A stretch of 64,000 nt of DNA from Escherichia coli (lineage in GTDB: Bacteria; Pseudomonadota; Gammaproteobacteria; Enterobacterales; Enterobacteriaceae), in assembly GCF_050920415.1 (NCBI RefSeq), contig NZ_CP169309.1; one strand, given 5' to 3'. The notes beneath the pieces were generated by a model, which had not been told where the DNA came from, did not search any database, and saw nothing but the letters and a program-made list of their open reading frames with translations. This document shows positions 12,615 through 49,513 of this stretch, piece after piece. How positions within the stretch are numbered: the stretch's first letter is position 1; each line of letters begins with the position of its first letter. A program made the translations under genes and the position numbers.

Positions 12615-13296
12615 TTATGGATCTGTTGATTGTTTTAACTTACGTGGCGCTGGCATGGGCGGTCTTTAAAATCTTCCGTATTCCGGTGAATCAGTGGACG
12701 CTGGCGACGGCGGCGCTGGGAGGCGTTTTTCTGGTAAGCGGTTTGATTTTGTTGATGAACTACAACCACCCTTACACTTTTACCGCACAGAAAGCGGTGA
12801 TTGCTATTCCCATCACGCCACAGGTGACGGGGATCGTGACTGAAGTCACTGACAAGAATAATCAGCTTATTCAGAAGGGCGAGGTGCTTTTTAAGCTCGA
12901 CCCGGTACGTTATCAGGCGCGAGTCGACAGACTTCAGGCTGACCTGATGACGGCGACGCATAATATAAAGACGCTGCGCGCGCAGCTCACTGAAGCGCAA
13001 GCCAATACCACCCAGGTTTCAGCGGAGCGTGACCGCTTGTTTAAAAATTATCAACGTTACCTGAAAGGCAGCCAGGCGGCGGTAAATCCGTTCTCAGAAC
13101 GTGATATCGACGATGCGCGGCAGAATTTTCTCGCGCAGGATGCGCTGGTGAAAGGTTCGGTGGCGGAACAGGCGCAAATCCAGAGCCAGCTCGACTGTCA
13201 GCGCCAATGATATAAGACAGTAATTCACCATTTGGATTGTCCGCTCCACCCAACATGTTGTTTCCTTAAGGTTCCTACACCACAAAGGGAACACTC

Positions 13297-14343
13297 ATGC
13301 TGAGCAGAGAGGACTTTTACATGATAAAGCAAATGCGCCAGCAAGGTGCGTATATTGTTGATATTGCCACTCAGGTTGGTTGCTCTGAGCGGACTGTCAG
13401 ACGGTACCTGAAATACCCGGAACCTCCGGCCAGAAAAACACGCCACAAAATGGCCAAACTCAAGCCGTTCATGGACTATATCGACATGCGTCTGGCTGAG
13501 AATGTCTGGAACGGCGAGGTCATCCTGGCGGAAATCAAAGCGATGGGTTATACCGGTGGCCGTTCCATGTTGCGTTACTACATCCAGCCCAAACGTAAGA
13601 TGCGGCCATCGAAGAAAACGGTTCGCTTCGAAACTCAGCCCGGTTACCAGCTACAGCATGACTGGGGAGAAGTTGAGGCTGAGGTTGCCGGGCAACGATG
13701 CAGGGTTAACTTCGCGGTTAATACGCTGGGGTTCTCACGTCGCTTCCATGTCTTCGCGGCACCAAAGCAGGATGCTGAACATACCTATGAGTCACTGGTC
13801 CGCGCCTTTCGCTACTTCGGCGGCAGCGTGAAAACCGTGCTGGTCGATAACCAGAAAGCCGCAGTGCTGAAAAATAACAACGGGAAGGTGGTGTTCAACT
13901 CCGGGTTCCTGCTGCTGGCCGATCACTATGGCTTCCTGCCACGGGCCTGCCGTCCACGAAGGGCCAGAACCAAAGGTAAGGTGGAACGGATGGTGAAATA
14001 CCTCAAGGAAAACTTCTTCGTCCGGTACCGCCGGTTCGACAGCTTCGCCCATGTTAATCAGCTACTGGAGCAGTGGATGGCTGACGTTGCCGACAGGCGG
14101 GAACTTCGCCAGTTCAGGCAGACACCGGAACAGCGCTTCACGCAGGAACAGGTGCATCTGCAGGCGCTGCCAGGTACGGACTTCGATACCAGCTACTTCG
14201 ATATCCGTCATGTCTCCTGGGATGGCTATATCGAGGTTGGCGGGAACCGTTACAGCGTGCCGGAAAGCCTGTGTGGCCAGCCGGTATCAATACGGATCTC
14301 GCTGGATGATGAACTGCGATTTACAGTAATGAGCAACAGGTAG
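13297..14343 (+). CDS. istA: IS21-family transposase IstA, apparently frameshifted near its 3' end
   Basis: HTH N-terminus and DDE-like core. The ORF stops at 14343, but another frame continues ...[13 protein letters not shown] to a TGA at 14466-14468 that overlaps the istB ATG, the usual istA/istB junction. Confidence 0.7.
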   Translation: MLSREDFYMIKQMRQQGAYIVDIATQVGCSERTVRRYLKYPEPPARKTRHKMAKLKPFMDYIDMRLAENVWNGEVILAEIKAMGYTGGRSMLRYYIQPKRKMRPSKKTVRFETQPGYQLQHDWGEVEAEVAGQRCRVNFAVNTLGFSRRFHVFAAPKQDAEHTYESLVRAFRYFGGSVKTVLVDNQKAAVLKNNNGKVVFNSGFLLLADHYGFLPRACRPRRARTKGKVERMVKYLKENFFVRYRRFDSFAHVNQLLEQWMADVADRRELRQFRQTPEQRFTQEQVHLQALPGTDFDTSYFDIRHVSWDGYIEVGGNRYSVPESLCGQPVSIRISLDDELRFTVMSNR

Positions 14344-14455
14344 CATCGCACCGTCTCTGTTCGGCTGTATACGGCTGGCAGACCGTGCCGGAGCATCACG
14401 CCCCACTCTGGCAGCAGGTCAGTCAGGTGGAACACAGGCCGTTGAGTGCCTATGA

Positions 14456-15262
<807 letters not shown>

Positions 15263-15884
15263 TGACCAATAGCGGACATTAAAAATGGCGAAAAACGGCC
15301 AATAATCTTGGCGTTGACACGACAGTATGGTTAACGGTGAGCAGTCGCAGATTGTCAGCTTAAGGGCGCAGCTTACCGAAGCGAAATATAACCTTGAGCA
15401 GACCGTCATTCGCGCGCCGAGCAATGGCTACGTTACTCAGGTACTGATCCGCCCAGGTACATACGCAGCTGCCTTGCCGCTACGTCCGGTGATGGTTTTC
15501 ATCCCCGAGCAAAAACGGCAAATTGTCGCCCAATTTCGGCAGAACTCGCTGTTACGTCTGAAACCCGGCGATGATGCGGAAGTAGTGTTTAACGCGCTAC
15601 CTGGGCAGGTGTTCCACGGCAAACTGACTAGTATTTTACCTGTCGTGCCAGGTGGTTCGTATCAGGCGCAGGGGGTACTGCAATCATTAACCGTCGTACC
15701 CGGCACGGACGGTGTGCTGGGAACCATCGAACTGGACCCTAACGCTGATATCGATGCTTTACCCGACGGCATCTACGCCCAGGTGGCAGTTTACTCCGAC
15801 CATTTCAGCCATGTTTCGGTGATGCGGAAGGTGCTGCTAAGAATGACCAGTTGGATGCATTATCTTTATTTGGATCATTGAGGG

Positions 15885-16450
15885 GGGCGGGGGAGATTAT
15901 GGAACTTTGCTCCTTGTAAGGACTAATTATTTTTGCATATTACTTCATTGGCTGCGATGATTTTTCTTTAATATTCATTAGGTTGAGAAGTTCTTGATGA
16001 GTGTGCTCTCATTGGATTTTTTATCCGTCTTGTTCTGCCGCAGGATCAGACTATACATCGTCGAGATCGCAATGATTATGAATTGTTCCTCTGCGACGAT
16101 GCTAATCAAAAAAGTGCTGGAGTGCTTTTCCATCTATTGCGATGATGGTTTTATTATCTGAAGAATGACAGTCACACATCCAGCTAATAAAGAACTCGTG
16201 AAATTTTCCAGGACTGATACAGGACACAACTCTGGTAATGATATCGTGAATAGGAATACCATATTAAAAATCACCATATTGCTTCAACAAATCGAGATGA
16301 GTCTCACCAGAATCCTCTATATCTTCCCATCCTTCAGCTCCGGAAATGATGGCGAAAATAATCAGCACTAGGATATCTGATAATTTATACTCTACTTTCC
16401 AGACTTGTCTGTAATCGGGACAGTAGAAATATGCTCCATTAATTTTTTAA
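15885..16450 (-). pseudogene. Degenerate H-repeat (ISAs1-family) transposase remnant
   Basis: Minus-strand translation gives [11 protein letters not shown]..., then after stops and frameshifts ...AIDGKALQ...RRRGTIH...ELLNLMNIKEK, matching H-rpt transposase motifs as I recall them. Confidence 0.5.
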
Positions 16451-16915
16451 GTTCCATTTTTTCTCCTTGTTTATGTAAGGAGTGTCTGAATATATATAAG
16501 CTATGAAAACACTTATTAAATAATAAGGGATATCTTGATTATTGGACATTTAGTGCTAATTGTTTAGTGCAAAAAATCGGCGTTATATGGTCTTTACCTT
16601 TATTACCCTTGCTGTTTTCCTCCAGCCTATGAAAAGCCAGCTTCAGTAAATCGTACCGCCCGAACATTGTAAGATACAATTTACTGACAACTTAGTACAT
16701 TATTAATATCACATTTAAGCTTTTTTTTCAGATTATAAAGCCTGTCCACTTTATAATCTTTGCAATTATAAACGTATTCTTTTTTTGTTTTCATATCAAT
16801 GACACTAACCCCTCGCATGTTACTACCGTTGTCGTAATTGCTAAACACGGAGTACTTATATCCACTTTGAATAAAACTAACGCTAAAGTAATCCGTTTGA
16901 AATCTGGAGTAATGA

Positions 16916-17128
16916 TTATAAAAAATCCTGAATACATTGGTCCATCTGAAATGAATTGAAATTTATCCCATGCTGACTATTCATTTCATAAATCAACGTT
17001 TCACCAAAACTTGTTAATGACAAAGTTCCTTTGGATGTATTACATAAAAAATAATTATTTCCTGCGTTTAGAGTCCAGGGAATTCCAGATAAAAAAATAA
17101 AAATTAATGCTCTATCTATATTGCTCAT
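16916..17128 (-). CDS. Hypothetical small protein downstream of the orphan toxin fragment; possible immunity-gene remnant
   Basis: 70-aa ORF whose start overlaps the end of the orphan toxin ORF; AT-rich; no recognisable motif. Confidence 0.25.
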   Translation of the reverse strand: MSNIDRALIFIFLSGIPWTLNAGNNYFLCNTSKGTLSLTSFGETLIYEMNSQHGINFNSFQMDQCIQDFL

Positions 17129-18290
17129 AATTAGCCCTTATTCTGTCATCATATCCTCGCTGACTTTGCCCATTATAACATAGAGCAAAGTTAAGCCAAT
17201 CTTTATCTCTAATAGCACGCAATAATACAGGATTAGATTTTATGAAGTTAATGAATGCCGCCAGATGGTTTTTCTCTGACTCTGAAATCGATATTATAAA
17301 CTCTTCGGGCGAAGAGTACCCGGCAGCTTGGTAATTTGAAGCCAATATCTGAAATTTACCCCACGATGCCGATTTAAGCGCAGCTTGCTTATCTAAAACA
17401 TATGCACGAAGTAATTTTTGATATTGCTCCGATCGTGTTCCATAACCGCCAGAACGGCTGTTGGAAATATCAGGTTGAGAATCATACACACCATTCGTAT
17501 ATCGATGGAAATGATGTCTTTCAAAAAGAATTGAGGGGACGTAATCATCTTCTTGTTCAAATTTAAAATAGCTACCGGAACTACCAGTTTCAGTTTTTGC
17601 AACAGCTTTAATTGCAGCCACTTCGCATTGTAGTGTCCTTGCAGCATTTTCATAGTCTGCATCATCAATGGTATCTCCGTTATAAAATCGTAAAAATTCC
17701 AATGGAATAAGTTCATTATTTACAGGAGTTTTTGGGTAATTGCTATTATTAATAGCATTCAAAAACACAACCGGATGAAAATGCCACACAGCATCATCAC
17801 TATTAAACGGAGACACCCCGCTCATCCACTCCAGATCCAGCTGCCACTTTTCACAGTATGCCACTTCCTCGGGTCCAGATCTTTATAAAACCCTTCCCAG
17901 CGTCCCGTCGAGCGACCGCCGTACCACTCGCTGTGGTGTCTGACTGTCAGACGATTCACCACATTTCTCACCAGTGGTTCACGCACGGTCAGCGCCTGTC
18001 TGATCTCTTCCTCCGTCACTTTTCCATCACCGTCCTGATCCATACCCGCCATCAGCTCACGATAAAAGGGCGGTACCTGCTCATACAGCCACTCATCTCC
18101 CTGTTCTGCGGCACGGCTTATTGAGTCAAACGCTTCCGGCACCCATCCTTCGTACGGGCTGTACGTCATGTCACCGCTGCTGTTCTCCTCCAGCGGCTGA
18201 AAACCCAGCTTCAGTAAATCATACTGTCCGGCCTCTTCAACATCCTTCTGTGGCAGCCAGCCGGTTCCGGTGATATTAAGCCGCCTCTGG
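17112..18290 (-). pseudogene. Orphan 3' fragment of a VgrG-linked effector paralogue: EF-hand linker plus an alternative C-terminal muramidase-like domain, frameshifted near 17860
   Basis: ORFs 17822-18391 and 17112-17864 are collinear with residues about 383-556 of the 829-aa effector at 19290-21779 (NITGTGWLPQKDVEEAGQ...DQDGDGKVTEEE...AYCEKWQLDLEWMSGVSPFNSDDAVWHFHPVVFL), then diverge into a different C-terminal domain (...FERHHFHRYT...SWGKFQILASNY...). Confidence 0.55.
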
Positions 18291-18572
18291 TTTCCTTTTA
18301 ATAAAGCACTCGTGAAATTTTGCAGGACTGATACAGGATACAACTCTGGCAATGGTATCGTGAACAGGAATACCATTATCAAAATCACCATATTGCTTCA
18401 AAAAATCGAGATGTGTTTCCCCAAAATCCTCTATATCTTCCCAGCCTTCTGCACCCGAAATAACGGCACAAATAGTCAACAGTAGAATATCCGATAATTT
18501 ATGTTGCACTTTCCAGGCTTGTCTGTAATCGGGGATAATAGAAATATGTCCCATCAATTTTTTAAGTTCCAT
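18276..18572 (-). pseudogene. H-repeat (ISAs1-family) transposase N-terminal fragment, about 90 codons, fused to the orphan toxin fragment
   Basis: [60 protein letters not shown]... matches the N-terminus of H-rpt transposases; a second copy with its upstream sequence is repeated at about 16150-16600. Confidence 0.6.
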
Positions 18573-18873
18573 TTTGTTCTCCTTAATTATGTAAGGAGTA
18601 TTTGATCATGTATAAGCAATAAAAAACAGCTTTAGGTAATGAGGAATATCTCAATTTTCAAACATAAAATGCGAATTGTCTAGTACAAAAAAGCAGCGTT
18701 ACGTGATCTTTCCCTGCCTGCCTGTACGATATCCCTCAAAAATAATTTTCCAGTCAGTTATTCATGTCTAACTTAAAATCATAAAACATTTAAATTAATA
18801 ATAAACAAATTCAACCTAGTCGCATTATTATTTTAATAACACAGCATCGATTTCATAAAAAACTGCACAATGG

Positions 18874-19284
18874 TCATCCAGTCCATTTGCAATCAGTACC
18901 ATCATCATTATATGCCTCAATATTTTCTTCAAACTCAGTTGTTTTCCCACTTATTGATTTATAATGAAACAAATTAAATCTTGCACCTTGTGTGGAAACA
19001 ACATACAACCCATTAATTTTTCCATTTACAACCTCGCTCCATGCATAAGAAAATTCAGAAGGCCTGTCATCGAAAGTCACTTCTAATTTATTTATAAACG
19101 CAAGAGGTATAAATTTTGAGGATTTCTCATAAATCACATAACCTAAAAAAATATCGCCAGACGATATTTCAACAAACTTTAAATTTGTTTTCCCAGCGCT
19201 AAAACAGCCTACCGTTGTTTGTTGTTTAGCCAATAAACAACAAGGCACCAAACAAAACAGTAAAACCAATAAGTTAACTTTCAT
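18874..19284 (-). CDS. Small secreted protein, putative immunity protein for the effector at 19290-21779
   Basis: N-terminal Sec-type signal peptide MKVNLLVLLFCLVPCCLLA; GGAG ribosome-binding site; starts 5 bp after the effector stop; AT-rich. Confidence 0.5.
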   Translation of the reverse strand: MKVNLLVLLFCLVPCCLLAKQQTTVGCFSAGKTNLKFVEISSGDIFLGYVIYEKSSKFIPLAFINKLEVTFDDRPSEFSYAWSEVVNGKINGLYVVSTQGARFNLFHYKSISGKTTEFEENIEAYNDDGTDCKWTG

Positions 19285-19289
19285 ATCAA

Positions 19290-21779
19290 TTACTCCAGTT
19301 CAGTTATTCGTCTCTCTACAAATGTGGATATATTCCTTTTTTCTATTCCATATACTTTTCTATCACCCTCACGCCCTTCCTGAGGAAACGGATGCAGGTC
19401 AATTAATTCTTTCGCCCTTCTATAACCTTTTAATGCTTCTTCGTTACTCTTGATCGTCCCTCTTCGGGAGCTATCAGGATCATGCCATATCCCCCATCCC
19501 AAAGCATATACTTTATTATCATATACGTCACTATCATCAAACAAGAAATCGTCGTTCATTGCTTTCTGATTTAAATGCTCGGCAGCAAGTGAGGTAACCA
19601 ATTTATTAAATATCGACAACCGTTCATCATAATGATTATACCCTCCATTAATCACTGCTGTAATTTTATTAAAATCATCATTTTTAGCATCTTCATTTAT
19701 TCTTTTGAATATATTGAAATACCAAAACGCAGATAATACGCAATGTGGGGAGGATATAAGTTTATCTCTTGCGGAATCTGAAGATGTTACGTCCTCATTG
19801 ATATATTCCCCATAGGCGGTGTAATTACTTTCCCCTGTAACTTGTATTAAGCCTCGGCCATACCACGGACTATATGAAGCTGATTCACCATTAATTTCTT
19901 TGGTATATCTAAAATAACCGCTCTCGTGAATAATTTGAGCAAGAAAATGGGCTTTTTCTCTACAAGTGGTCATACCAAACCGAATAAACCCTGCATTTAT
20001 ATCGTAGAGGTACCTTTTGAGAAGACCTTCACTTACTGCAGGAGCAACTTTTTTTAATTCATCTAATGTTATATCTCTGTTGCAAGCACACACAGATTTG
20101 GAATTAATAGCGTCCAAAAACACAACCGGATGAAAATGCCACACAGCATCATCACTATTAAACGGAGATACCCCGCTCATCCACTCCAGATCCAGCTGCC
20201 ACTTCTCACAGTATGCCACTTCCTCTGTGTCCAGATCTTTATAAAATCCTTCCCACCGCCCTGTCGAGCGCCCTCCGTACCATTCGCTGTGGTGTTTAAC
20301 TATCAGATGATTCACCACATTTCTCACCAGTGGTTCACGCACGGTCAGCGCCTGTCTGATCTCTTCCTCCGTCACTTTTCCATCACCGTCCTGATCCATA
20401 CCCGCCATCAGCTCACGATAAAAGGGCGGTACCTGCTCATACAGCCACTCATCTCCCTGTTCTGCGGCACGGCTTATTGAGTCAAACGCTTCCGGCACCC
20501 ATCCTTCGTACGGGCTGTACGTCATGTCACCGCTGCTGTTCTCCTCCAGCGGTTGAAAACCCAGCTTCAGTAAATCATACTGTCCGGCCTCTTCAACATC
20601 CTTTTGTGGCAGCCAGCCGGTTCCGGTGATATTAAACCACCACTGCTGCGATTCATCCGTGATCGGTGTCGTGGCTTCCCGCGGAAGAACGCGCTGAGCA
20701 CCCAGTGTGGCTGCGGTTGCGGTAAATACCTCCTGTCCCGGAACGGCCTGCCGGGTGTATAAAATTATCCCTTTTGGTGCCAGAACAGTCCGTTTTTCTC
20801 CCTTAACGCCTGCCGGGTTGGATAAGAACTTTGGCATATTCGGGTCTGTACTCAGAACCTCCAGATGGACGAACCACTCGCGCTCAATCTCACCGCTTCC
20901 CTCGCCAGGATAATCCTCGCATCCCATAAATCCGACCGGTGTTCCGGCACTGACTTTCCACTCTTCCGTTTCGTCGACCGTCTGTACCGAGTCAAAAATG
21001 CCTTTTGCCTTCGCCTTCTGCATCCACTCAGGCATCAGCATCTGTATTTCGCCATCTGACTCCATCAGATCCGGATCCAGGGTCACCCAGTACTGCTCAT
21101 TCCCCGGTTTATTGCCTTCCAGCAGGCGAACCAGTCCGAATGTCGTCAGGACCGGCTGGCCGTTATTGGTCACGTAAAAACGTCCGGTCCGGGATGACAC
21201 AAACCGATCTCCCGCATTAAGTGTCCTGTTTCCGCTGATTTTCGGGGGTATCCAGTACGTGGCATGATCTCCGCTTTCCTGCCCCTCGGGAAGGCCGTTC
21301 TTTCCCGGGATGTATCGGTGCAGCAATATGCCACCATGCCCGGTTTTAACTTTATAGCAGGGGGAGCCGGGATAATCGTTCACCGGGGCCAGATGCATAT
21401 AGAGACAGTAAAATTCCAGCCAGCTTTCTTTTTTTTGCGGGTCTGGCTGGCACTGCGATTTCACCAGAACAAATGTGCTGCTGTAACGGAGTTGCTGCCC
21501 TTTGTAGGTGCCTTTCAGGTAATCATTATTTATCCGGTACGCCGCAATGGTGCCATCGGCCATAAACTGAAGAGGAACCGGTTCTCCGGTAGCGGCGGTA
21601 TCCGGTTTCAGGGCTGATAACGGATTAGACACGTCACTGATATGTATCCCGCCGTGCCACAGCCCGTTTCCACCCAGCAGCCAGGTTCCGTGCGCTTCTT
21701 TGTCAATAAGCCGCATTATCTCATCCAGCGAGCGAAACTCTTTGCCTTCTTTATCCCTGATGGGATGGCTGATTTTCAT
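19290..21779 (-). CDS. VgrG-linked multidomain putative T6SS effector (829 aa): N-terminal M23-like region, EF-hand loop, C-terminal GH19-like glycoside hydrolase
   Basis: Starts 9 bp after the vgrG stop. WHGGIHI, LYMHL and GTPVGFMG...FVHLEV resemble M23 (lysostaphin/LytM) motifs; DQDGDGKVTEEE is a canonical 12-residue EF-hand loop; AHFLAQIIHESG...YGRGLIQVTGESNY resembles GH19 signatures. No signal peptide. Confidence 0.6.
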   Translation of the reverse strand: MKISHPIRDKEGKEFRSLDEIMRLIDKEAHGTWLLGGNGLWHGGIHISDVSNPLSALKPDTAATGEPVPLQFMADGTIAAYRINNDYLKGTYKGQQLRYSSTFVLVKSQCQPDPQKKESWLEFYCLYMHLAPVNDYPGSPCYKVKTGHGGILLHRYIPGKNGLPEGQESGDHATYWIPPKISGNRTLNAGDRFVSSRTGRFYVTNNGQPVLTTFGLVRLLEGNKPGNEQYWVTLDPDLMESDGEIQMLMPEWMQKAKAKGIFDSVQTVDETEEWKVSAGTPVGFMGCEDYPGEGSGEIEREWFVHLEVLSTDPNMPKFLSNPAGVKGEKRTVLAPKGIILYTRQAVPGQEVFTATAATLGAQRVLPREATTPITDESQQWWFNITGTGWLPQKDVEEAGQYDLLKLGFQPLEENSSGDMTYSPYEGWVPEAFDSISRAAEQGDEWLYEQVPPFYRELMAGMDQDGDGKVTEEEIRQALTVREPLVRNVVNHLIVKHHSEWYGGRSTGRWEGFYKDLDTEEVAYCEKWQLDLEWMSGVSPFNSDDAVWHFHPVVFLDAINSKSVCACNRDITLDELKKVAPAVSEGLLKRYLYDINAGFIRFGMTTCREKAHFLAQIIHESGYFRYTKEINGESASYSPWYGRGLIQVTGESNYTAYGEYINEDVTSSDSARDKLISSPHCVLSAFWYFNIFKRINEDAKNDDFNKITAVINGGYNHYDERLSIFNKLVTSLAAEHLNQKAMNDDFLFDDSDVYDNKVYALGWGIWHDPDSSRRGTIKSNEEALKGYRRAKELIDLHPFPQEGREGDRKVYGIEKRNISTFVERRITELE

Positions 21780-21788
21780 GTTCAGTCC

Positions 21789-23990
21789 TTATCGTGAGAA
21801 TCTTCCCGGCCGTTGTGGCGGTACCTTATCCTGCTGGGGAGGATCAAAGGCTTCCTGTACATTTTTCCGTGGTGGCTCCGCCCCTTCAGTTCCAGGTCCG
21901 CCATTGTCATAATCTGCCAGCGCTTTCAAAACCGCCGGTCGTAGTGTCGGCACCGGCGTTCCCGGACTACCGCCGCTATTGAGATTGATTTTCGGCCCGA
22001 CGATGTCCACGCCCCCTGAATGGATGACCACAAACGAACCACCCACCTTCAGGGTGATTTTACCGCCACTCTCCAGTACGATTTCATCCCGGACCTTCAT
22101 TCCCAGCGCACCGGTAATCTTCCTCGCCAGGTCGCCCTTCACCTCCAGACTGTGCGTTCCCTCCACCAGACTGATATGGTTCCCCGTCGTCTTATGCTCC
22201 TGCTTCCCTTCCACCGTCACTTTACGGTCGTTTCTGACATACAGGCCGTCATCGTGACTCACGCTCACCGTCCGGTCATTCGTCACCTTCAGCGTCTGGT
22301 CATTACGTACCGTTATGCGCCGGTCGTTCGCCACCGTGATACTCTGGTCGTGGCCCCCTTCTTTTCTGGTGCCGACCTCAACCGTCTGCCCCTTCACCAC
22401 CCTTATCTTCTGGTCGTTACCGATGGTCTCCGTATGGTCATGCTTCACGTCCGTCGTCCGGTCGTTAAGCACCTCCGTGTCCATGTTCTTCTGCGCGTGG
22501 ATATACACCTGCTCACTGTCCGTCGCATCCTCGAAACGCAGTTCATTAAAGCCGCTTCCTTTATAGGTCTTCGAGCGGATGGTCATCTGCGTCCGCGTGC
22601 CCGGTAAATCCCCCGGTGAACGGTTATCTTCATGGTAGGTCCGCCCCGTCACAATGGGCTGGTCCGGGTCGCCGTTCAGAAAGTCCACTATCACTTCCTG
22701 ACCCACACGCGGTATCGCCAGATTGCCGAACCCCGGTCCCGCCCATGCCTGCGACACCCGTATCCAGCATGAACTCTCCTCCGTCATCCCGTGATAACGG
22801 TCCCAGTGAAACTTCACCCGTACCCGGCCATGCTCGTCGCAGAATATCTCCTCGCCCTTCGGCCCGGTCACGATGGCACTCTGCGGGCCGTCCACCTTCG
22901 GCTTCGGCAGGGGCTGTGAGCGCCAGGTCCGGTCTGCCGGGATGACCGTGATATGGTTACTCAGTGTCGTTCCCCTCCCCTGGCTCCCGTGCAGCGCCTG
23001 CGGCTGGCTCCCCGTCAGCGTGCTGCTCACCACCTGCCACTCACGGTTCGGGTTCGCTCCCTGTACCGGATGCCCCGTCAGGGTGAACCGCCGTCCCGGC
23101 CACAGCGCCGGGGAGTTACTGATACCTGTGGCGGTTTCAGCACTGTTACGCAGCCCTTCCAGCCGGTAGCGGGTAAAGTCCTGACCATGCTGCTCGTCCT
23201 TGTAGCGCCCCGGCCAGTCCAGGATTTTGTACTGCTTCAGTTGCTCGTTGAGGTTTTCAGCATCCTCAATGTAAATACCCGGCCAGTCCGGCACCTTAAA
23301 CGTGTGGTCTTTTGAACGCACCTGCGAGGGCCGCACCTGCGCCTGGTAGCGGAACAGGCTGATGCACGCCGTCGTCACCTCACGGGTGTTCGGGTTAAAC
23401 GGTATCTCCCCGTACACCGGCAGGCCCGCCACATCATCGCACAGCGTGAGCGTCTGCTCCGGGCTGTCGTCAGCGTATCTGTCATAAAAGAAGATGCCTT
23501 CCTCCGCCCACAGCCGGGTCAGAAACGCCAGGTCGCTTTCACCGTACTGGACGCAGAACTCCCGTGCCGGGTGGCTCTCATAAAAGCGCGGCGTCCACTG
23601 CGTCACTCCGTCCTCGTTTAACAGCGTGGCGGAGATGGCCTGAATGTCCTGCTGCTGGAAGATTCGGTAGTTCTGCCGCAGCCCGCTGCGCCACAGGGGC
23701 GGGCGTATCTGAAGGTGGTACTGCATCTGCCAGCCGTTGTGCTCCTTCATGCCTAACCCCGACACCACACCGCTCACATAACGCAGCGCCGTGCCACCCT
23801 GCCAGATGGTCAGCACGGCCCCCTTCTCCAGCAGCTTCTCCGCCGTCTGGCGGAACGAGTCGCTGGCAACGTCCACATCCAGGACGAACGGCGATGAGTA
23901 TGCCTGCGTGAGGCGGAAATCCACCACCGCGAACGTCTCCGGCACCAGTCCGTCCACCGTCAGCGTAAAACGCAGCCCTTTTAATGACAT
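21789..23990 (-). CDS. vgrG: Type VI secretion spike protein VgrG (733 aa)
   Basis: MSLKGLRFTLTVDGL... N-terminus, gp27/gp5-like core with beta-helix repeats (VRNDQTLKVTNDRTVSVSHDD...), GGAGG-type RBS. Confidence 0.9.
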   Translation of the reverse strand: MSLKGLRFTLTVDGLVPETFAVVDFRLTQAYSSPFVLDVDVASDSFRQTAEKLLEKGAVLTIWQGGTALRYVSGVVSGLGMKEHNGWQMQYHLQIRPPLWRSGLRQNYRIFQQQDIQAISATLLNEDGVTQWTPRFYESHPAREFCVQYGESDLAFLTRLWAEEGIFFYDRYADDSPEQTLTLCDDVAGLPVYGEIPFNPNTREVTTACISLFRYQAQVRPSQVRSKDHTFKVPDWPGIYIEDAENLNEQLKQYKILDWPGRYKDEQHGQDFTRYRLEGLRNSAETATGISNSPALWPGRRFTLTGHPVQGANPNREWQVVSSTLTGSQPQALHGSQGRGTTLSNHITVIPADRTWRSQPLPKPKVDGPQSAIVTGPKGEEIFCDEHGRVRVKFHWDRYHGMTEESSCWIRVSQAWAGPGFGNLAIPRVGQEVIVDFLNGDPDQPIVTGRTYHEDNRSPGDLPGTRTQMTIRSKTYKGSGFNELRFEDATDSEQVYIHAQKNMDTEVLNDRTTDVKHDHTETIGNDQKIRVVKGQTVEVGTRKEGGHDQSITVANDRRITVRNDQTLKVTNDRTVSVSHDDGLYVRNDRKVTVEGKQEHKTTGNHISLVEGTHSLEVKGDLARKITGALGMKVRDEIVLESGGKITLKVGGSFVVIHSGGVDIVGPKINLNSGGSPGTPVPTLRPAVLKALADYDNGGPGTEGAEPPRKNVQEAFDPPQQDKVPPQRPGRFSR

Positions 23991-24145: not shown

Positions 24146-25060
24146 TTAATAATTCCTCAACGAATAAGGAGGAGATGCCCTGTCCCCATCAATAGTAACC
24201 ACGACCTGATTTGATCTTATTTTGAATATATTATCATTACCGCCATGATAGCCAAATCGTGCTAAAAAATCCTGAAATAGACCAGGTCCTCTATAAGGTC
24301 CACAGATTCTCCAAACCCGCCACTCCTCTATGCCATACGTTATTTTATCTATAGGATTAGTACACTCTCTTTCTGCCCGCCAGTTCATAATAGAAAGAAA
24401 ATACTCATATATATATTGTTCTGCAAACCACTCTTGATTAACTATTGTAAATTCTACCGTCCCTATATTATAACGATGAATGCCCGGTAAAAAGGCATAA
24501 TAATCGTTCAATGTGACATCAAAGGATAGCTCTTTCCCTGGTAATATCTCGCGCCAAACAGATTTACTTTTCCATTCACCAAAGCTACATTTTGTTTTTT
24601 TTAAAAAATCCAACTGAATGTTATCCATTATCGGTATAAACACACCACTACACAAGGAAGAGTAAGGCCCGCCGTTAACGTCAAGAGGAAGAGTTAGTCG
24701 ATGAACAAAATAAGATCCCTGGCTTTTATTCGATAAAACCACTGCAGCTGCTACAATATTTTCTTTCTGATGCACGGAAAGATGAAGATATATTTTATTT
24801 TTATCCTGATTATACTGACTCTCATTTTTACTGATAGTATAATATTGAAAAACAGCATAGGCTGAAAGATCATCATAATAATCATAATAATTAAGCCTTG
24901 TCGGTTCTACACGAGGATAGACACCAAGTTTTTCCATTACTCCATTCCAATGTAACTTCCCATATCTGTAATGAACCGCATAATCGCCAGAGATATCATA
25001 AGCAAATATTGGATGCACCCAAGAAAAAAAAGCAATAAAAACAATCCATCTAGCAAGCAT
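24146..25060 (-). CDS. Secreted protein with Sec signal peptide, putative immunity protein for the HExxH effector
   Basis: Start placed at the ATG at 25058-25060 (strong GGGGGAG RBS), giving MLARWIVFIAFFSWVHPIFA as signal peptide; 25 bp after the effector stop. Confidence 0.5.
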   Translation of the reverse strand: MLARWIVFIAFFSWVHPIFAYDISGDYAVHYRYGKLHWNGVMEKLGVYPRVEPTRLNYYDYYDDLSAYAVFQYYTISKNESQYNQDKNKIYLHLSVHQKENIVAAAVVLSNKSQGSYFVHRLTLPLDVNGGPYSSLCSGVFIPIMDNIQLDFLKKTKCSFGEWKSKSVWREILPGKELSFDVTLNDYYAFLPGIHRYNIGTVEFTIVNQEWFAEQYIYEYFLSIMNWRAERECTNPIDKITYGIEEWRVWRICGPYRGPGLFQDFLARFGYHGGNDNIFKIRSNQVVVTIDGDRASPPYSLRNY

Positions 25061-25084
25061 ATACTCCCCCGTCAAATAAAAGCA

Positions 25085-25930
25085 TCAATATGGTACAGGA
25101 ATCTCGAAATAACGTTCGATATTATATGCATTCTGAAACAGTTCTGATTTTTTATCATTTTTTAATTTAGTGGCATGAGCAATATATTCGTCACCTGTAC
25201 TATACTCTATATCTACCGGCATATCTTCCGTCCACATGCCTCCAAACTTAAGTGAATCCCCGTACCTTATAAAGTGAGATAGTTCATGGCAGAGTGTCGA
25301 TGCCTTAGAGTTTTCCCCAGTGAATGGCCTATCTATAAATCTTTGTCCTATAGTTATACTTACCAAACTTTTAAAGCTTCCAGATTTTACACCCAAAATC
25401 TGATCGTAAGTTACATTGGCAGCATAAGCGTCATTATCTGTACAATTCACAAAGTTACCAATTTTGGGCCTGATTACGTCTTTGTCAACATATTCATTAC
25501 CCCCTTTGTCATTAAGAACAAGATTACAATTGGCATCACGTTTGAGGAAATGGTCATGAACGGTAACGTCTACACAATCACCTTCCACAGATAATTCCCC
25601 ACATATCTCATACAGGCGAGTAACGCCATTTCTCATATAATCCCTTGCCTTTATATTCTCTGTAAACAGAGTATTACGCCCCCCGAAAGGGAACTTTAAT
25701 TTAATATAAGTATTTCCATCAATGCCAAATATATTTATAAATTCCTGATTTTGTTCCGCCCCCCATTTATCACCAAGATCTTCTACTCTTTTTTTCAATA
25801 CAGCCATCTGCGCCTTCAGAGCCTCTCTCATCATTATTTTAAAATCATTAGTAATTTTCCCCTCCTTTAAAACTACACACTGTTCACCACTCTGGCTTTT
25901 TCCGCTCGTACTACCCTTTTCATCTCCCAT
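25085..25930 (-). CDS. VgrG-linked putative zinc-metallopeptidase-like effector (281 aa, HExxH)
   Basis: CHELSHF (HExxH) at residues 215-219, with a possible downstream Asp ligand in STGDEY; hydrophilic N-terminus with no signal peptide; AAGGAGGA RBS; 81 bp after the vgrG stop. Confidence 0.5.
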   Translation of the reverse strand: MGDEKGSTSGKSQSGEQCVVLKEGKITNDFKIMMREALKAQMAVLKKRVEDLGDKWGAEQNQEFINIFGIDGNTYIKLKFPFGGRNTLFTENIKARDYMRNGVTRLYEICGELSVEGDCVDVTVHDHFLKRDANCNLVLNDKGGNEYVDKDVIRPKIGNFVNCTDNDAYAANVTYDQILGVKSGSFKSLVSITIGQRFIDRPFTGENSKASTLCHELSHFIRYGDSLKFGGMWTEDMPVDIEYSTGDEYIAHATKLKNDKKSELFQNAYNIERYFEIPVPY

Positions 25931-26011
25931 ATAAATCCTCCTTGGTATATATTTTCACTACAAACCCTGTTCCATTTATGCAAAAACACGCCAATTACAG
26001 GCGGTCACTCT

Positions 26012-28324
26012 CTATTCATTAATCCCTCCCCATATCATATCGATATTCAAATGCAACAATCTGACGTCTATTGTCTGCTCGCTGTCAGTGGTGAATATTT
26101 CCGTATACCCATCCTTATCCGTTTCTCCGCGGGTCTGCGTGCCGTCCTCAAAGAAGGCAATGTAGCGTGTCTCTGAATACGGTATCCCGTCATCGTCTGT
26201 AAAATGGAACTGGAGAGTATATTTTTCAGGGTTCTCATCATCATTCTCATCCTCCAGCGCCTCCAGTACAACCGGTTGCAGCGTCGATACTGGCGTCCCC
26301 GGACCTCCCCCACCATTCAGGTTTATCTTCGGCCCCACTATATCCACGCCGCCAGAGTGTATCACCACGAACGAACCGCCCGCTTTCAGGCTTATCTGGC
26401 TGCTGCTCTCCAGCACGATATCCCCGTCCACCTTTATCCCCAGCGCGCCACTCACCTTCTCCGCCAGGTCACCCTTCACCTCCAGGCTGTGTTTCCCCTC
26501 CACCAGGCTGATATGGTTTCCCGTCGTCTTATGCTCCTGCTTCCCTTCCACCGTCACTTTACGGTCGTTTCTGACATACAGGCCGTCATCGTGACTCACG
26601 CTCACCGTCCGGTCATTCGTCACCTTCAGCGTCTGGTCATTACGTACCGTTATGCGCCGGTCGTTCGCCACCGTGATACTCTGGTCGTGACCCCCTTCTT
26701 TTCTGGTGCCGACCTCAACCGTCTGCCCCTTCACCACCCTTATCTTCTGGTCGTTACCGATGGTCTCCGTATGGTCATGCTTCACGTCCGTCGTCCGGTC
26801 GTTAAGCACCTCCGTGTCCATGTTCTTCTGCGCGTGGATATACACCTGCTCACTGTCCGTCGCATCCTCGAAACGCAGTTCATTAAAGCCGCTTCCTTTA
26901 TAGGTCTTCGAGCGGATGGTCATCTGCGTCCGCGTGCCCGGTAAATCCCCCGGTGAACGGTTATCTTCATGGTAGGTCCGCCCCGTCACAATGGGCTGGT
27001 CCGGGTCGCCGTTCAGAAAGTCCACTATCACTTCCTGACCCACACGCGGTATCGCCAGATTGCCGAACCCCGGTCCCGCCCATGCCTGCGACACCCGTAT
27101 CCAGCATGAACTCTCCTCCGTCATCCCGTGATAACGGTCCCAGTGAAACTTCACCCGTACCCGGCCATGCTCGTCGCAGAATATCTCCTCACCCTTCGGC
27201 CCGGTCACGATGGCACTCTGCGGGCCGTCCACCTTCGGCTTCGGCAGCGGCGCGTGACGCCACGTCCTGTCTGCCGGTATCACCTCAAACTGATTGCTCA
27301 GTGTCGTCCCTTCACCGTGACTCCCGTGCAGCGCCTGCGGCTGTTCTCCCCGCAGTGTGCTTCCCACAACCTGCCATTCCCGGTTCAGCGTCGCTGACGG
27401 ATGGCCCGTCAGCCGGAACCGCGTTCCCGGCCACAGCCGCGCCGTGTTACACACCCCGCTCGCCGTCTCCGCCCCGTTCCGCCACCCTTCCGTCTGGTAA
27501 CGCGCAAAATCCTGGCCATGCTGCTCATCCTTGAAACGCCCCGGATAATCAAATATCTCGTACTGCGTTCCCTGTCCGTTCAGGCTCTCCCCGTCATGGC
27601 TGTAGTACCCCGGCCACCCCGGCGTTTTGAACGTATAATCCTGCGTCTCCACCGACGCCACGCTTATCTGCGCACGGTAACGGAAGTCGCGGATGTACTC
27701 TGTCGTGCCTCCGGTCGTGGTATTCGGGTTAAACGCCAGCGCCCCCATTCCCGTCAGCCCCGCCACGTCATCACACACCGCCAGCTTCTGTTCCGGCCCG
27801 TCCTGACTGCAGCGTTCATAAAAGAAGATACCTTCCTCCGCCCACAGCCGGGTCAGGAATGTCAGGTCGCTCTCCCCGTACTGCACGCAGAACTCCCGCG
27901 CCGGGTGCGCCTCATAGAACAGCGGCATCCACGCCGTCACCCCGTTCTCTTCAAGAAGCTGCGCTGATATCGTCTGAATGTCCTGCTGCTGGAAGATACG
28001 GAAGTTCTGCCGTAACCCTGCCCGCCACAGCGGCGGGCTGATGCTCAGGGAATAACGCATCTGCCAGTCGTTGTTCTCACCGAGCTGCACCTCTGTCACG
28101 ATACCGCTGACGTAACGCTGTGCAGTGTCGCCCTGCCAGACCGTCAGCACCGCGCTTTTCTCCAGAAAATCTTCTGCCGTCAGGTCAGACAGTCCGCTGG
28201 CGATATCCACATCCAGGATGAACGGTGTGCAGTGGTGCTGGTACAGACGGAAGCTCACCACCGCCGTCGCCATCTCCACAATACCGTCCACCGACAGCGT
28301 GAAACGTAATCCTTCTGCTGCCAT
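26012..28324 (-). CDS. vgrG: Type VI secretion spike protein VgrG with a divergent acidic C-terminal extension (about 770 aa)
   Basis: Start set at MAAEGLRFTLSVDG (ATG at 28322-28324); core nearly identical to the vgrG at 21789-23990; C-terminal 100 aa (...EDENDDENPEKYTLQFHFTDDDGIPYSE...) is unique. Confidence 0.9.
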   Translation of the reverse strand: MAAEGLRFTLSVDGIVEMATAVVSFRLYQHHCTPFILDVDIASGLSDLTAEDFLEKSAVLTVWQGDTAQRYVSGIVTEVQLGENNDWQMRYSLSISPPLWRAGLRQNFRIFQQQDIQTISAQLLEENGVTAWMPLFYEAHPAREFCVQYGESDLTFLTRLWAEEGIFFYERCSQDGPEQKLAVCDDVAGLTGMGALAFNPNTTTGGTTEYIRDFRYRAQISVASVETQDYTFKTPGWPGYYSHDGESLNGQGTQYEIFDYPGRFKDEQHGQDFARYQTEGWRNGAETASGVCNTARLWPGTRFRLTGHPSATLNREWQVVGSTLRGEQPQALHGSHGEGTTLSNQFEVIPADRTWRHAPLPKPKVDGPQSAIVTGPKGEEIFCDEHGRVRVKFHWDRYHGMTEESSCWIRVSQAWAGPGFGNLAIPRVGQEVIVDFLNGDPDQPIVTGRTYHEDNRSPGDLPGTRTQMTIRSKTYKGSGFNELRFEDATDSEQVYIHAQKNMDTEVLNDRTTDVKHDHTETIGNDQKIRVVKGQTVEVGTRKEGGHDQSITVANDRRITVRNDQTLKVTNDRTVSVSHDDGLYVRNDRKVTVEGKQEHKTTGNHISLVEGKHSLEVKGDLAEKVSGALGIKVDGDIVLESSSQISLKAGGSFVVIHSGGVDIVGPKINLNGGGGPGTPVSTLQPVVLEALEDENDDENPEKYTLQFHFTDDDGIPYSETRYIAFFEDGTQTRGETDKDGYTEIFTTDSEQTIDVRLLHLNIDMIWGGINE

Positions 28325-48526: not shown

Positions 48527-49513
48527 TTATTGCACCTCATCCACGGCTTTCAGCAGTTCATCGCCCTGCGGAACATCTTTTACAAACATGTCGCGGACCT
48601 GAGTACCCAGTACGTCGCTAAAGGCTTTGCGATCAAGTTCGGTGATGACTTCCACGCCAGCGTCTTTCATGCCGTCGATGATTTTTTGCTGATTTTCGGC
48701 GACCAATTTGCGCTGGTAATTACCCGCTTCTTGCGCAGATGAAATTAGCGCTTGCTGGAACTCCGGGCTTAAGCCATCAAACTTCGCTTTGTTGATCACC
48801 ACCAGAAGTGGGGAATAGGCATGGTGCGTCAGAGAAAGGTACTTCTGCACTTCATAAAATTTGGCTGACCAGACGACGTTGATCGGGTGTTCCTAAGCGT
48901 CGATAGTGCGCGTTTCCAGCCCGGTATAGACTTCGGCAAATGGCATCGGAATCGGGTTAGCGCCAAAGACTTTGAATGCGGCGATATTCATCGGGCTATT
49001 GTTGGTGCGTATTTTCAGCCCTTTCAGGTCGGCAGGTGTTTTAACTGGCTGGCGTGAGTTGGTGACATCGCGCCAGCCGTTTTCCCAGTAGGCCAGTACT
49101 TTCAGTCCCTTACCTTCAAGGGAGGCCTTCAGTTCATCGCCGACTTTGCCGTCGAGTGTTTTATGCGCGTGGGCGGTATCGCGGAACAGGAAAGGAACAT
49201 CAAGCAGGTTCATCACAGGTGATAATCCGGCAAAGTTATTCGAGCCAGACATCTCCATATCAATAGTGCCGCCACGCACGCCGCTGATCATCGCTTGTGC
49301 GTTGCCGAGAGTACTGTCCGGGAACAGTTTTAATTTCAGCTCGCCTTTGGTTCTCTCCTGTAATAATTCATTAAATTTTTTCGCTGCAATATGTTGTGAG
49401 TCGGTTTGTGAGGTTTCATAACCGAAACGTAATGATTGTGCCGCCAGCGAAGACGTACTGAATGCAGCGAGGCCAGCAATGAATAATGCGTAGGTTACAG
49501 AGCGTAATTTCAT
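48527..49513 (-). pseudogene. yiaO: TRAP-transporter solute-binding protein YiaO with an in-frame amber stop
   Basis: The 987-bp frame (328 codons, the length I recall for K-12 YiaO) is intact except for TAG at 48893-48895 (minus strand), giving ...TRTIDA*EHPINVVW; the codon replaces the Gln of the conserved TRAP-SBP D-x-Q-E-x-P motif. Confidence 0.75.

Follow-up and report, generated by a model that had tools for sequence, protein, structure and literature searches.

The 70-aa open reading frame (ORF) that overlaps the end of an orphan muramidase toxin ORF in this Escherichia coli genome is the first part of a broken gene. The minus-strand segment 16681–17128 is a pseudogene of the 149-aa protein WP_000065119.1, and with a probability of roughly 0.85 we regard it as the dead cognate immunity gene of the orphan toxin module in which it lies. 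The window mentioned below is the whole stretch of DNA that was analysed (64,000 nt). The original prediction had taken the broken gene for an immunity gene of the muramidase-like toxin, and comparative genomics supports this assignment. An immunity role is suggested by where the gene lies, by its co-variation with the toxin, by an export signal and by the persistence of orphan copies, and from these we infer that the intact protein would neutralize the muramidase.

The 70-aa ORF is the start of a frameshifted gene

The ORF list of the window contains a 70-aa frame with an ATG start, and the 250-aa toxin ORF shares 17 nt with it. As predicted, the DNA is AT-rich. The G+C content is 29.5% over 16681–17128, compared with 38% in the toxin domain, 55.5% in the WHIX-derived piece and 50.5% in the window. 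The ORF-like text that had been noticed in the other frames turned out to be the rest of the gene. Three-frame translation and alignment to the copies of RMDEC465 and N96 revealed one 450-nt gene that is split by two 1-nt deletions into three frame segments, and with translation and tblastn these segments reassemble into an intact 149-aa protein. The features are listed in Table 1.

Codons 1–54 encode the signal-peptide-like residues 1–22 and the first three predicted beta-strands. The second frame holds about 14 codons of the intact gene, between codons 1–54 and codons ~70–149. Three of the four invariant cysteines lie in the third segment together with the likewise invariant motif YNHYSRFQTDY, and this segment is out of frame with the gene's own start. 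The reading frame is not intact in this genome: the two deletions leave 54 authentic residues followed by 16 out-of-frame residues, and the product keeps only three of the ten predicted strands and one of the four cysteines and is devoid of the YNHYSRFQTDY motif. The DNA of the window is 99.4% identical to the intact annotated gene. The substitution H21N falls on position −2 of the predicted signal-peptidase site (TLHA↓G).

Annotation was read from the RefSeq record of E. coli MFDS1022581 (NZ_CP169399.1, 129338–193337), whose gene coordinates agree with those of the window and whose DNA is 100% identical to it over the two stretches put through BLAST, 16500–17200 and 17112–17870. The RefSeq (PGAP) annotation of 16458–17111 is blank. 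This blank, and the lack of a database family, would fit an ORF that arose by chance in the AT-rich DNA between genes, or an independent small gene. Both readings are refuted by the alignment with the intact genes: H21N is the only difference from codons 1–54 of the 149-aa gene, and the remainder follows in the other two frames. Also, the part of the protein that the family conserves is missing from the truncated product. By our own arithmetic, 70 codons without a stop would have a probability of ~0.003 at a stop frequency of ~8% per codon in DNA of 30% G+C. We give this alternative practically no weight and treat the ORF as part of the pseudogene.

The Shine–Dalgarno-like AAGGG lies within the end of the toxin ORF, an arrangement that would be suited to translational coupling. 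A promoter-like site with a near-consensus extended −10 element was seen 44 nt 5′ of the ATG, inside the 3′ end of the toxin ORF, and could be an internal promoter of the putative immunity gene. By consensus match only, it recalls the internal immunity promoters reported for Vibrio cholerae. In a promoter and terminator scan the number of sites in the region was not above that in shuffled controls. An Rfam scan of 15800–19400 gave as sole match a sub-threshold archaeal snoRNA, which was taken as chance.

Table 1. Positions of the features in the window
Feature	Position	Strand	Evidence
Whole pseudogene, 448 nt (intact: 450 nt, 149 aa)	16681..17128	-	alignment to intact L001 and L003 copies; tblastn
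ATG of the pseudogene	17128-17126	-	
Stop codon of the pseudogene	16683-16681	-	
70-aa ORF: codons 1-54 authentic, then 16 out-of-frame codons and stop	16916..17128	-	alignment
Third frame segment, codons ~70-149	16681..16925	-	tblastn, alignment
Frameshift 1: one A lost, intact GGGAATAAA to GGGATAAA	16966..16967	-	alignment column 175
Frameshift 2: intact T7 run to T6 (the T6 at 16920-16925)	16920..16926	-	alignment column 217
Substitution H21N, CAC to AAC	17068	-	alignment
Shine-Dalgarno-like AAGGG, 6 nt 5' of the ATG	17135..17139	-	read from sequence
Promoter-like site: TTGGCT, 16 nt, TATAAT with upstream TG	17172..17199	-	consensus match only
WHIX-coding remnant, ~50 nt, YDLLKLAFHRLEENS, directly 3' of the pseudogene	16602..16655	-	ORF translation; by-eye comparison with 18180-18230
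Orphan toxin ORF, 250 aa, GTG start	17112..17864	-	
PF11860 N-acetylmuramidase domain, toxin residues 81-249	~17118-17624	-	Pfam, E = 6.5e-46
WHIX homology region of the orphan module	17745..18280	-	tblastn, alignment with L031 and main copy
Truncated effector remnant	17112-18280	-	
ISAs1-family transposase fragment between main pair and orphan module	18300..18572	-	RefSeq annotation
Second ISAs1-family fragment, at the yibH end of the orphan module	15961..16457	-	RefSeq annotation
136-aa gene after the main effector	18874..19284	-	
Main 829-aa WHIX-class effector, WP_000703217.1	19290..21779	-	WHGGIH motif
VgrG (TssI) spike gene heading the effector locus	21789..23990	-	annotation
ISEc62 istA	13297-14469		
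ISEc62 istB, annotated as frameshifted	14469-15262		

The frameshifts are real and inherited

A megablast search of 5,426 complete E. coli genomes matched the region in three chromosomes only. Two of them, RMDEC465 and N96, give a match with 2 additional nt and contain at the same position an annotated 450-nt gene for WP_000065119.1, a "hypothetical protein". The predicted decay of a once longer gene was thereby confirmed, with an intact 149-aa version at the same site in other E. coli. Over the 2.1 kb of the orphan module, strains with the broken allele and strains with the intact gene differ at four positions, three of them within the putative immunity gene. All exact or near-exact E. coli copies are orphans at this position.

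Each deletion is located within or next to a mononucleotide run (AA, T7), the surrounding DNA is AT-rich, and the window matches a single complete-genome record, in which istB is itself annotated as frameshifted. These points would favour sequencing or assembly errors at short homopolymers in a strain that in reality has an intact gene. However, the exact 70-aa product (P0047), H21N included, was recovered in at least 23 contigs, which come from NCBI, from an ENA metagenome and from more than 20 Logan run assemblies. Both yibH backgrounds are represented, the intact gene and the one split by an IS21-family element, and in L038 the compared part of the module has the same DNA as the window. Because the same product recurs in independent assemblies, the lesion is real and inherited and not an assembly error. 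Furthermore, the broken genes in the 64-kb window are confined to the IS fragments, the IS-split yibH, yiaO with its internal stop and the annotated frameshift in istB. The other genes are intact, so that the assembly is not error-ridden, and we hold an artefact to be very improbable.

The split yibH (HlyD family, 12617–15881) is interrupted by the IS21-family element ISEc62, and yiaO (48527–49513) is a pseudogene with an internal stop in the RefSeq annotation. As the 70-aa allele is also present in strains with an intact yibH, the frameshifts probably predate the IS21 insertion.

Other broken alleles of the gene were found. P0013 (112 aa) has the deletion in the T run alone, P0050 (145 aa, five contigs) is frameshifted within an A8 run close to the 3′ end, and P0055 (85 aa) starts at M65. 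This amounts to at least three independent lesions among the alleles. By our own tally, ~30% of the contigs recorded for the 90%-identity cluster of the gene have a frame-disrupted product.

Since independent lesions fall in homopolymers (T7 in P0013 and P0047, A8 in P0050), one could think of a gene that is still functional through ribosomal or transcriptional slippage or through homopolymer phase variation. Yet the window allele would require two separate +1 corrections, the first of them at a site (GGGATAAA) that offers no slippery run. Tracts of 7–8 nt are short for phase variation, and many isolates share the double-mutant allele by stable inheritance. Residual function by such a route is highly improbable, and we consider the copy in the window to be dead.

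The orphan module lies downstream of a complete effector pair

Between yibF and yibH/mtlA, the minus strand carries in this order the VgrG gene, the 829-aa effector, the 136-aa gene, an ISAs1 fragment, the effector remnant, the pseudogene and a second ISAs1 fragment. The orphan toxin–immunity module is thus located downstream of a full-length effector–immunity pair and in the same orientation. The WHGGIH motif of the main effector is the WHxxxH signature of the WHIX secretion domain, and WP_000703217.1 appears in the supplement of the WHIX paper (PMC12135965). Its C-terminus has a weak, sub-threshold Pfam match to GH19 (chitinase-like), and the 136-aa gene is presumed to be the immunity gene for this domain. 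A paralogous relationship of the 136-aa gene to the 149-aa family was ruled out (hhalign probability 0.3%).

The WHIX homology region of the orphan encodes protein that is 95–97% identical to residues 382–560 of the main effector. These residues form its second WHIX region, which has an EF-hand-like match below the Pfam cut-off. Past residue 560 the homology ends, and the orphan continues into PF11860 and the main copy into the chitinase-like domain. At the orphan junction the G+C content steps from 55% to 38% (toxin) and to 30% (immunity gene). Only part of the second WHIX region is kept in the orphan, and the first is absent. In addition, a 1-nt deletion after 17873 splits the WHIX piece (the "EF-hand" ORF of PGAP) from the muramidase ORF. 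This deletion is shared by the window and three of the four other strains compared; the fourth, L031, is free of it and has an open ORF of 352 aa. Between 17988 and 17873, L031 carries main-effector sequence, which indicates gene conversion between the main and the orphan copy.

The toxin domain is a clear homologue of the PF11860/DUF3380 phage endolysins 7q4s (E = 6e-31), 5nm7 and 7rum, with E-values from 6e-31 to 6e-25 over ~185 residues. Those proteins are phage lysis enzymes, whereas the domain in the window belongs to the C-terminal warhead of a type VI secretion system (T6SS) effector and has a dedicated downstream gene. Among the 5,426 complete E. coli genomes, the toxin domain was present only in the three chromosomes and, with 69% identity, on one plasmid, and a cognate full-length attacker was not encountered in this set.

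The short YDLLKLAFHRLEENS remnant behind the pseudogene resembles the WHIX segment at the start of the orphan homology. WHIX fragments also occupy the equivalent place in L007–L010 and L022. The remnant is probably the trace of a further displaced module or a recombination junction.

Homologues follow PF11860 toxins in several genera

Comparison with intact homologous loci had been proposed as a check, and lack of a homologous immunity gene in intact versions of the module was to count against the prediction. The outcome was the reverse. We fetched loci L001–L054, and the tblastn comparison covered L001–L026. A homologue of the 149-aa gene follows PF11860 in full-length VgrG-linked effectors of several genera (Table 2). 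In all fetched loci except L053 and L025 the homologue starts 14–20 nt before the stop codon of the PF11860 toxin. Many partners are full-length VgrG-linked effectors of 764–1092 aa, and Cronobacter is also among the hosts of paired loci. The homologues behind PF11860 of full-length effectors are 40–75% identical to the protein of the window.

Table 2. Loci in which a homologue of the 149-aa gene (listed as "immunity" after its putative role) accompanies a long effector frame
Locus	Host	Gene order
L007	Enterobacter hormaechei	Hcp, VgrG, gene with weak DUF3828 match, 917-aa effector, immunity
L008	Enterobacter hormaechei	767-aa effector, immunity
L011-L014	E. coli IncFII plasmids	769-770-aa effector, immunity
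L015	Yersinia mollaretii	772-aa effector, immunity
L023	Salmonella arizonae	772-codon open frame, immunity
L026	Enterobacter asburiae	772-codon open frame, immunity
L050	ENA metagenome contig	VgrG, 764-aa effector, immunity, PAAR, TssM
L051	Acerihabitans	770-aa effector, immunity
L054	Entomomonas (remote relative, 40% identity)	VgrG, 1092-aa effector, immunity

The closest full-length version is that of Escherichia whittamii (L022), with 95% identity in the WHIX part, 90% in the toxin and 75% in the immunity protein. Effector and immunity gene are both frame-broken in this contig, which has a coverage of ~10x, and the breaks could be real decay or an assembly error. On the IncFII plasmids the WHIX-muramidase effector and its downstream gene adjoin partition and addiction genes. 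In L004–L006 a related chromosomal copy lies beside a CBASS operon (SMODS, ThiF, JAB, SAVED).

Toxin and immunity protein diverge together. Their identities to the window run from 83/74% over 71/56% and ~67/48% to 63/40%, and the pairwise identities co-vary with a Mantel r of 0.95 (p = 2e-4). Since tight linkage by itself yields correlated divergence, this result lends support but does not decide the matter. Divergence is faster on the immunity side (mean identity 58%, compared with 74% for the toxin). A scan of species-representative genomes yielded six loci only, too few for statistics, and look-ups of exact proteins were used in its place. The WHIX part is sometimes only ~33% identical where the toxin is ~70% identical, and this shows that toxin and immunity gene travel together as a module.

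The intact protein belongs to a family with a predicted export signal and beta-barrel fold

Pfam, NCBIfam and PDB sequence searches with the immunity protein gave no match, and none of ten sampled remote relatives had a Pfam family. A word-indexed search returned 45 homologues, most of them 142–151 aa long, with a few shorter fragments and one protein of 171 aa. All named hosts are Enterobacterales, and every protein is named "hypothetical protein". A profile search of 1.84 billion representatives gave 370 clusters at 50% identity (E ≤ 1e-3), whose proteins are typically 160–190 aa long. The ten clusters that were looked up include proteins of Pseudomonas, Ralstonia, Xanthomonas and Entomomonas.

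In the family alignment, the N-terminus shows a basic n-region, a hydrophobic core of 10–13 residues and small residues at −3 and −1; the signal-peptide call was made by inspection of the alignment by eye. Four cysteines are invariant. A nearly invariant block, YNHYSRFQTDYF, was also seen, along with the YNHYSRFQTDY motif. AlphaFold2, run with a 43-sequence alignment, predicted an all-beta barrel with a mean pLDDT of 85 and values above 90 for most of residues 30–140. Residues 1–22 are disordered in the model. The muramidase joined to the mature immunity protein by (GGGGS)6 was modelled as well, and this prediction reached a pLDDT of 52 and a pTM of 0.40 from a shallow alignment with 11 paired sequences. 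Known immunity and inhibitor families (PliC/MliC, Ivy, LprI/DUF1311, Tai3/DUF3828, Tsi3) gave no significant match in sequence or fold. One protein of 339 aa (P0069) is an apparent fusion of a protein of the 240-aa type, as found after the GH19 effector of L053, with a domain of the muramidase-immunity family, and is possibly a double immunity protein.

Copies of the gene are retained without the toxin

Three loci keep the gene where the toxin is lost or disrupted. L053 (3266–4456) carries VgrG, a GH19-type WHIX effector, a 240-aa gene and an intact family member and has no muramidase; the family member is, as far as gene content can tell, a true orphan immunity gene. In L049 the gene is retained behind an effector disrupted by IS1, and in L025 it stands with a toxin stub of only 47 residues. 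Orphan immunity genes are likewise known to outlast the loss or displacement of their toxin in V. cholerae and Pantoea (PMC5361080, PMC9796082), and the retention in L053, L049 and L025 is the same behaviour. The proposal that a retained orphan immunity gene protects against toxins of neighbours does not hold for the strain of the window, as its copy is dead.

Retention of the gene also bears on the question whether the intact family could be another kind of toxin partner, such as a co-effector that is itself secreted, an adaptor or chaperone, or a periplasmic protein whose linkage has unrelated causes. The missing sequence or fold match to known immunity and inhibitor families would leave room for such a partner. 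But the protein has a predicted export signal and conserved cysteines, and its gene is downstream of the toxin, overlaps the toxin stop and persists when the toxin is lost or displaced. T6SS adaptors and chaperones, in comparison, are cytoplasmic and usually encoded upstream of the effector. A role other than immunity is improbable, and we keep to the immunity gene as the preferred reading.

Proposed mechanism and relation to known systems

In the proposed mechanism, the intact 149-aa protein would be exported to the periplasm by its Sec signal peptide and would fold there into a small disulfide-bonded beta-barrel. This barrel would bind and block the muramidase domain that the T6SS injects, as other periplasmic immunity proteins and lysozyme inhibitors do with their targets. 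In the strain of the window, the two 1-nt deletions end translation after 54 authentic codons and abolish function. The 70-aa product cannot protect because the conserved motif, three cysteines and seven strands are gone. The loss would be harmless with respect to the strain's own toxin, as the adjacent toxin is truncated, frameshifted and without its delivery domain (the first WHIX region), so that no risk of self-intoxication is expected. The sole cost would be the loss of protection from neighbours that fire the cognate effector.

N-acetylmuramidase is a listed C-terminal toxin type of WHIX effectors (353 proteins), and the vast majority of the genes flanking WHIX effectors have predicted signal peptides and are likely cognate immunity proteins (PMC12135965). 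In position, orientation and export signal, the gene in the window resembles the WHIX immunity genes described there, such as AwiU and AwiD of Awe1 in Aeromonas jandaei. It differs from them in that the window holds a truncated orphan module and a pseudogene and not a full effector. The muramidase-linked downstream family was not singled out in that work, and the immunity-type domains reported in it (DUF1311/LprI, DUF3828/Tai3) do not match the 149-aa protein. Periplasmic lysozyme inhibitors and immunity proteins against T6SS glycoside hydrolases (PliC/MliC, Tsi3/Tgi) are near known systems.

The layout is also that of orphan modules of Rhs and CDI systems, of V. cholerae arrays (PMC5361080) and of T6SS1 in Pantoea agglomerans (PMC9796082). 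There, too, a 5′-truncated toxin with homology to the effector and then an immunity gene lie 3′ of an active pair. Exchange between main and orphan copy, seen here in L031, and retention of the immunity gene after displacement of the toxin, seen here in L053, are alike in these systems. Some Pantoea modules have been inactivated by frameshifts (PMC9796082), the same kind of inactivation as in the window. In contrast to orphans carried by Rhs, CdiA or PAAR proteins, the carrier here is a WHIX cargo effector. Two further points set the window apart from the Rhs/CDI, V. cholerae and Pantoea orphans, namely the ISAs1 fragments and the fact that toxin and immunity gene are both broken.

Decay of an orphan immunity gene in a WHIX-muramidase module is familiar in kind, and the gene belongs to an uncharacterised family. 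As a dead immunity gene beside a dead orphan toxin it represents routine genome decay and matters little in itself. The result does fill an annotation gap, as RefSeq leaves the place blank and calls the intact gene a "hypothetical protein". It also provides a concrete candidate immunity family, at present without Pfam model or solved structure, for the 353 N-acetylmuramidase WHIX effectors (PMC12135965). Finally, it offers a population example that bears on the useful lifetime of orphan immunity genes, with ~30% of the contigs recorded for the cluster frame-disrupted, at least three independent lesions and no cognate full-length attacker in 5,426 complete E. coli genomes.

A wider reading would make the proteins an undescribed, fairly large family of periplasmic beta-barrel inhibitors that is dedicated to PF11860/DUF3380 muramidases and might also blunt phage endolysins, as such endolysins share the PF11860 catalytic fold. 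We think this unlikely. If true, lysis from without or engineered endolysin drugs might be affected, and phage pressure would join T6SS pressure in deciding whether orphan copies persist.

Elsewhere in the window, the minus-strand region 24146–28324 contains a second vgrG (26012–28324). The two ORFs that come after it (281 and 304 aa) have no Pfam family and may be another effector–immunity pair.
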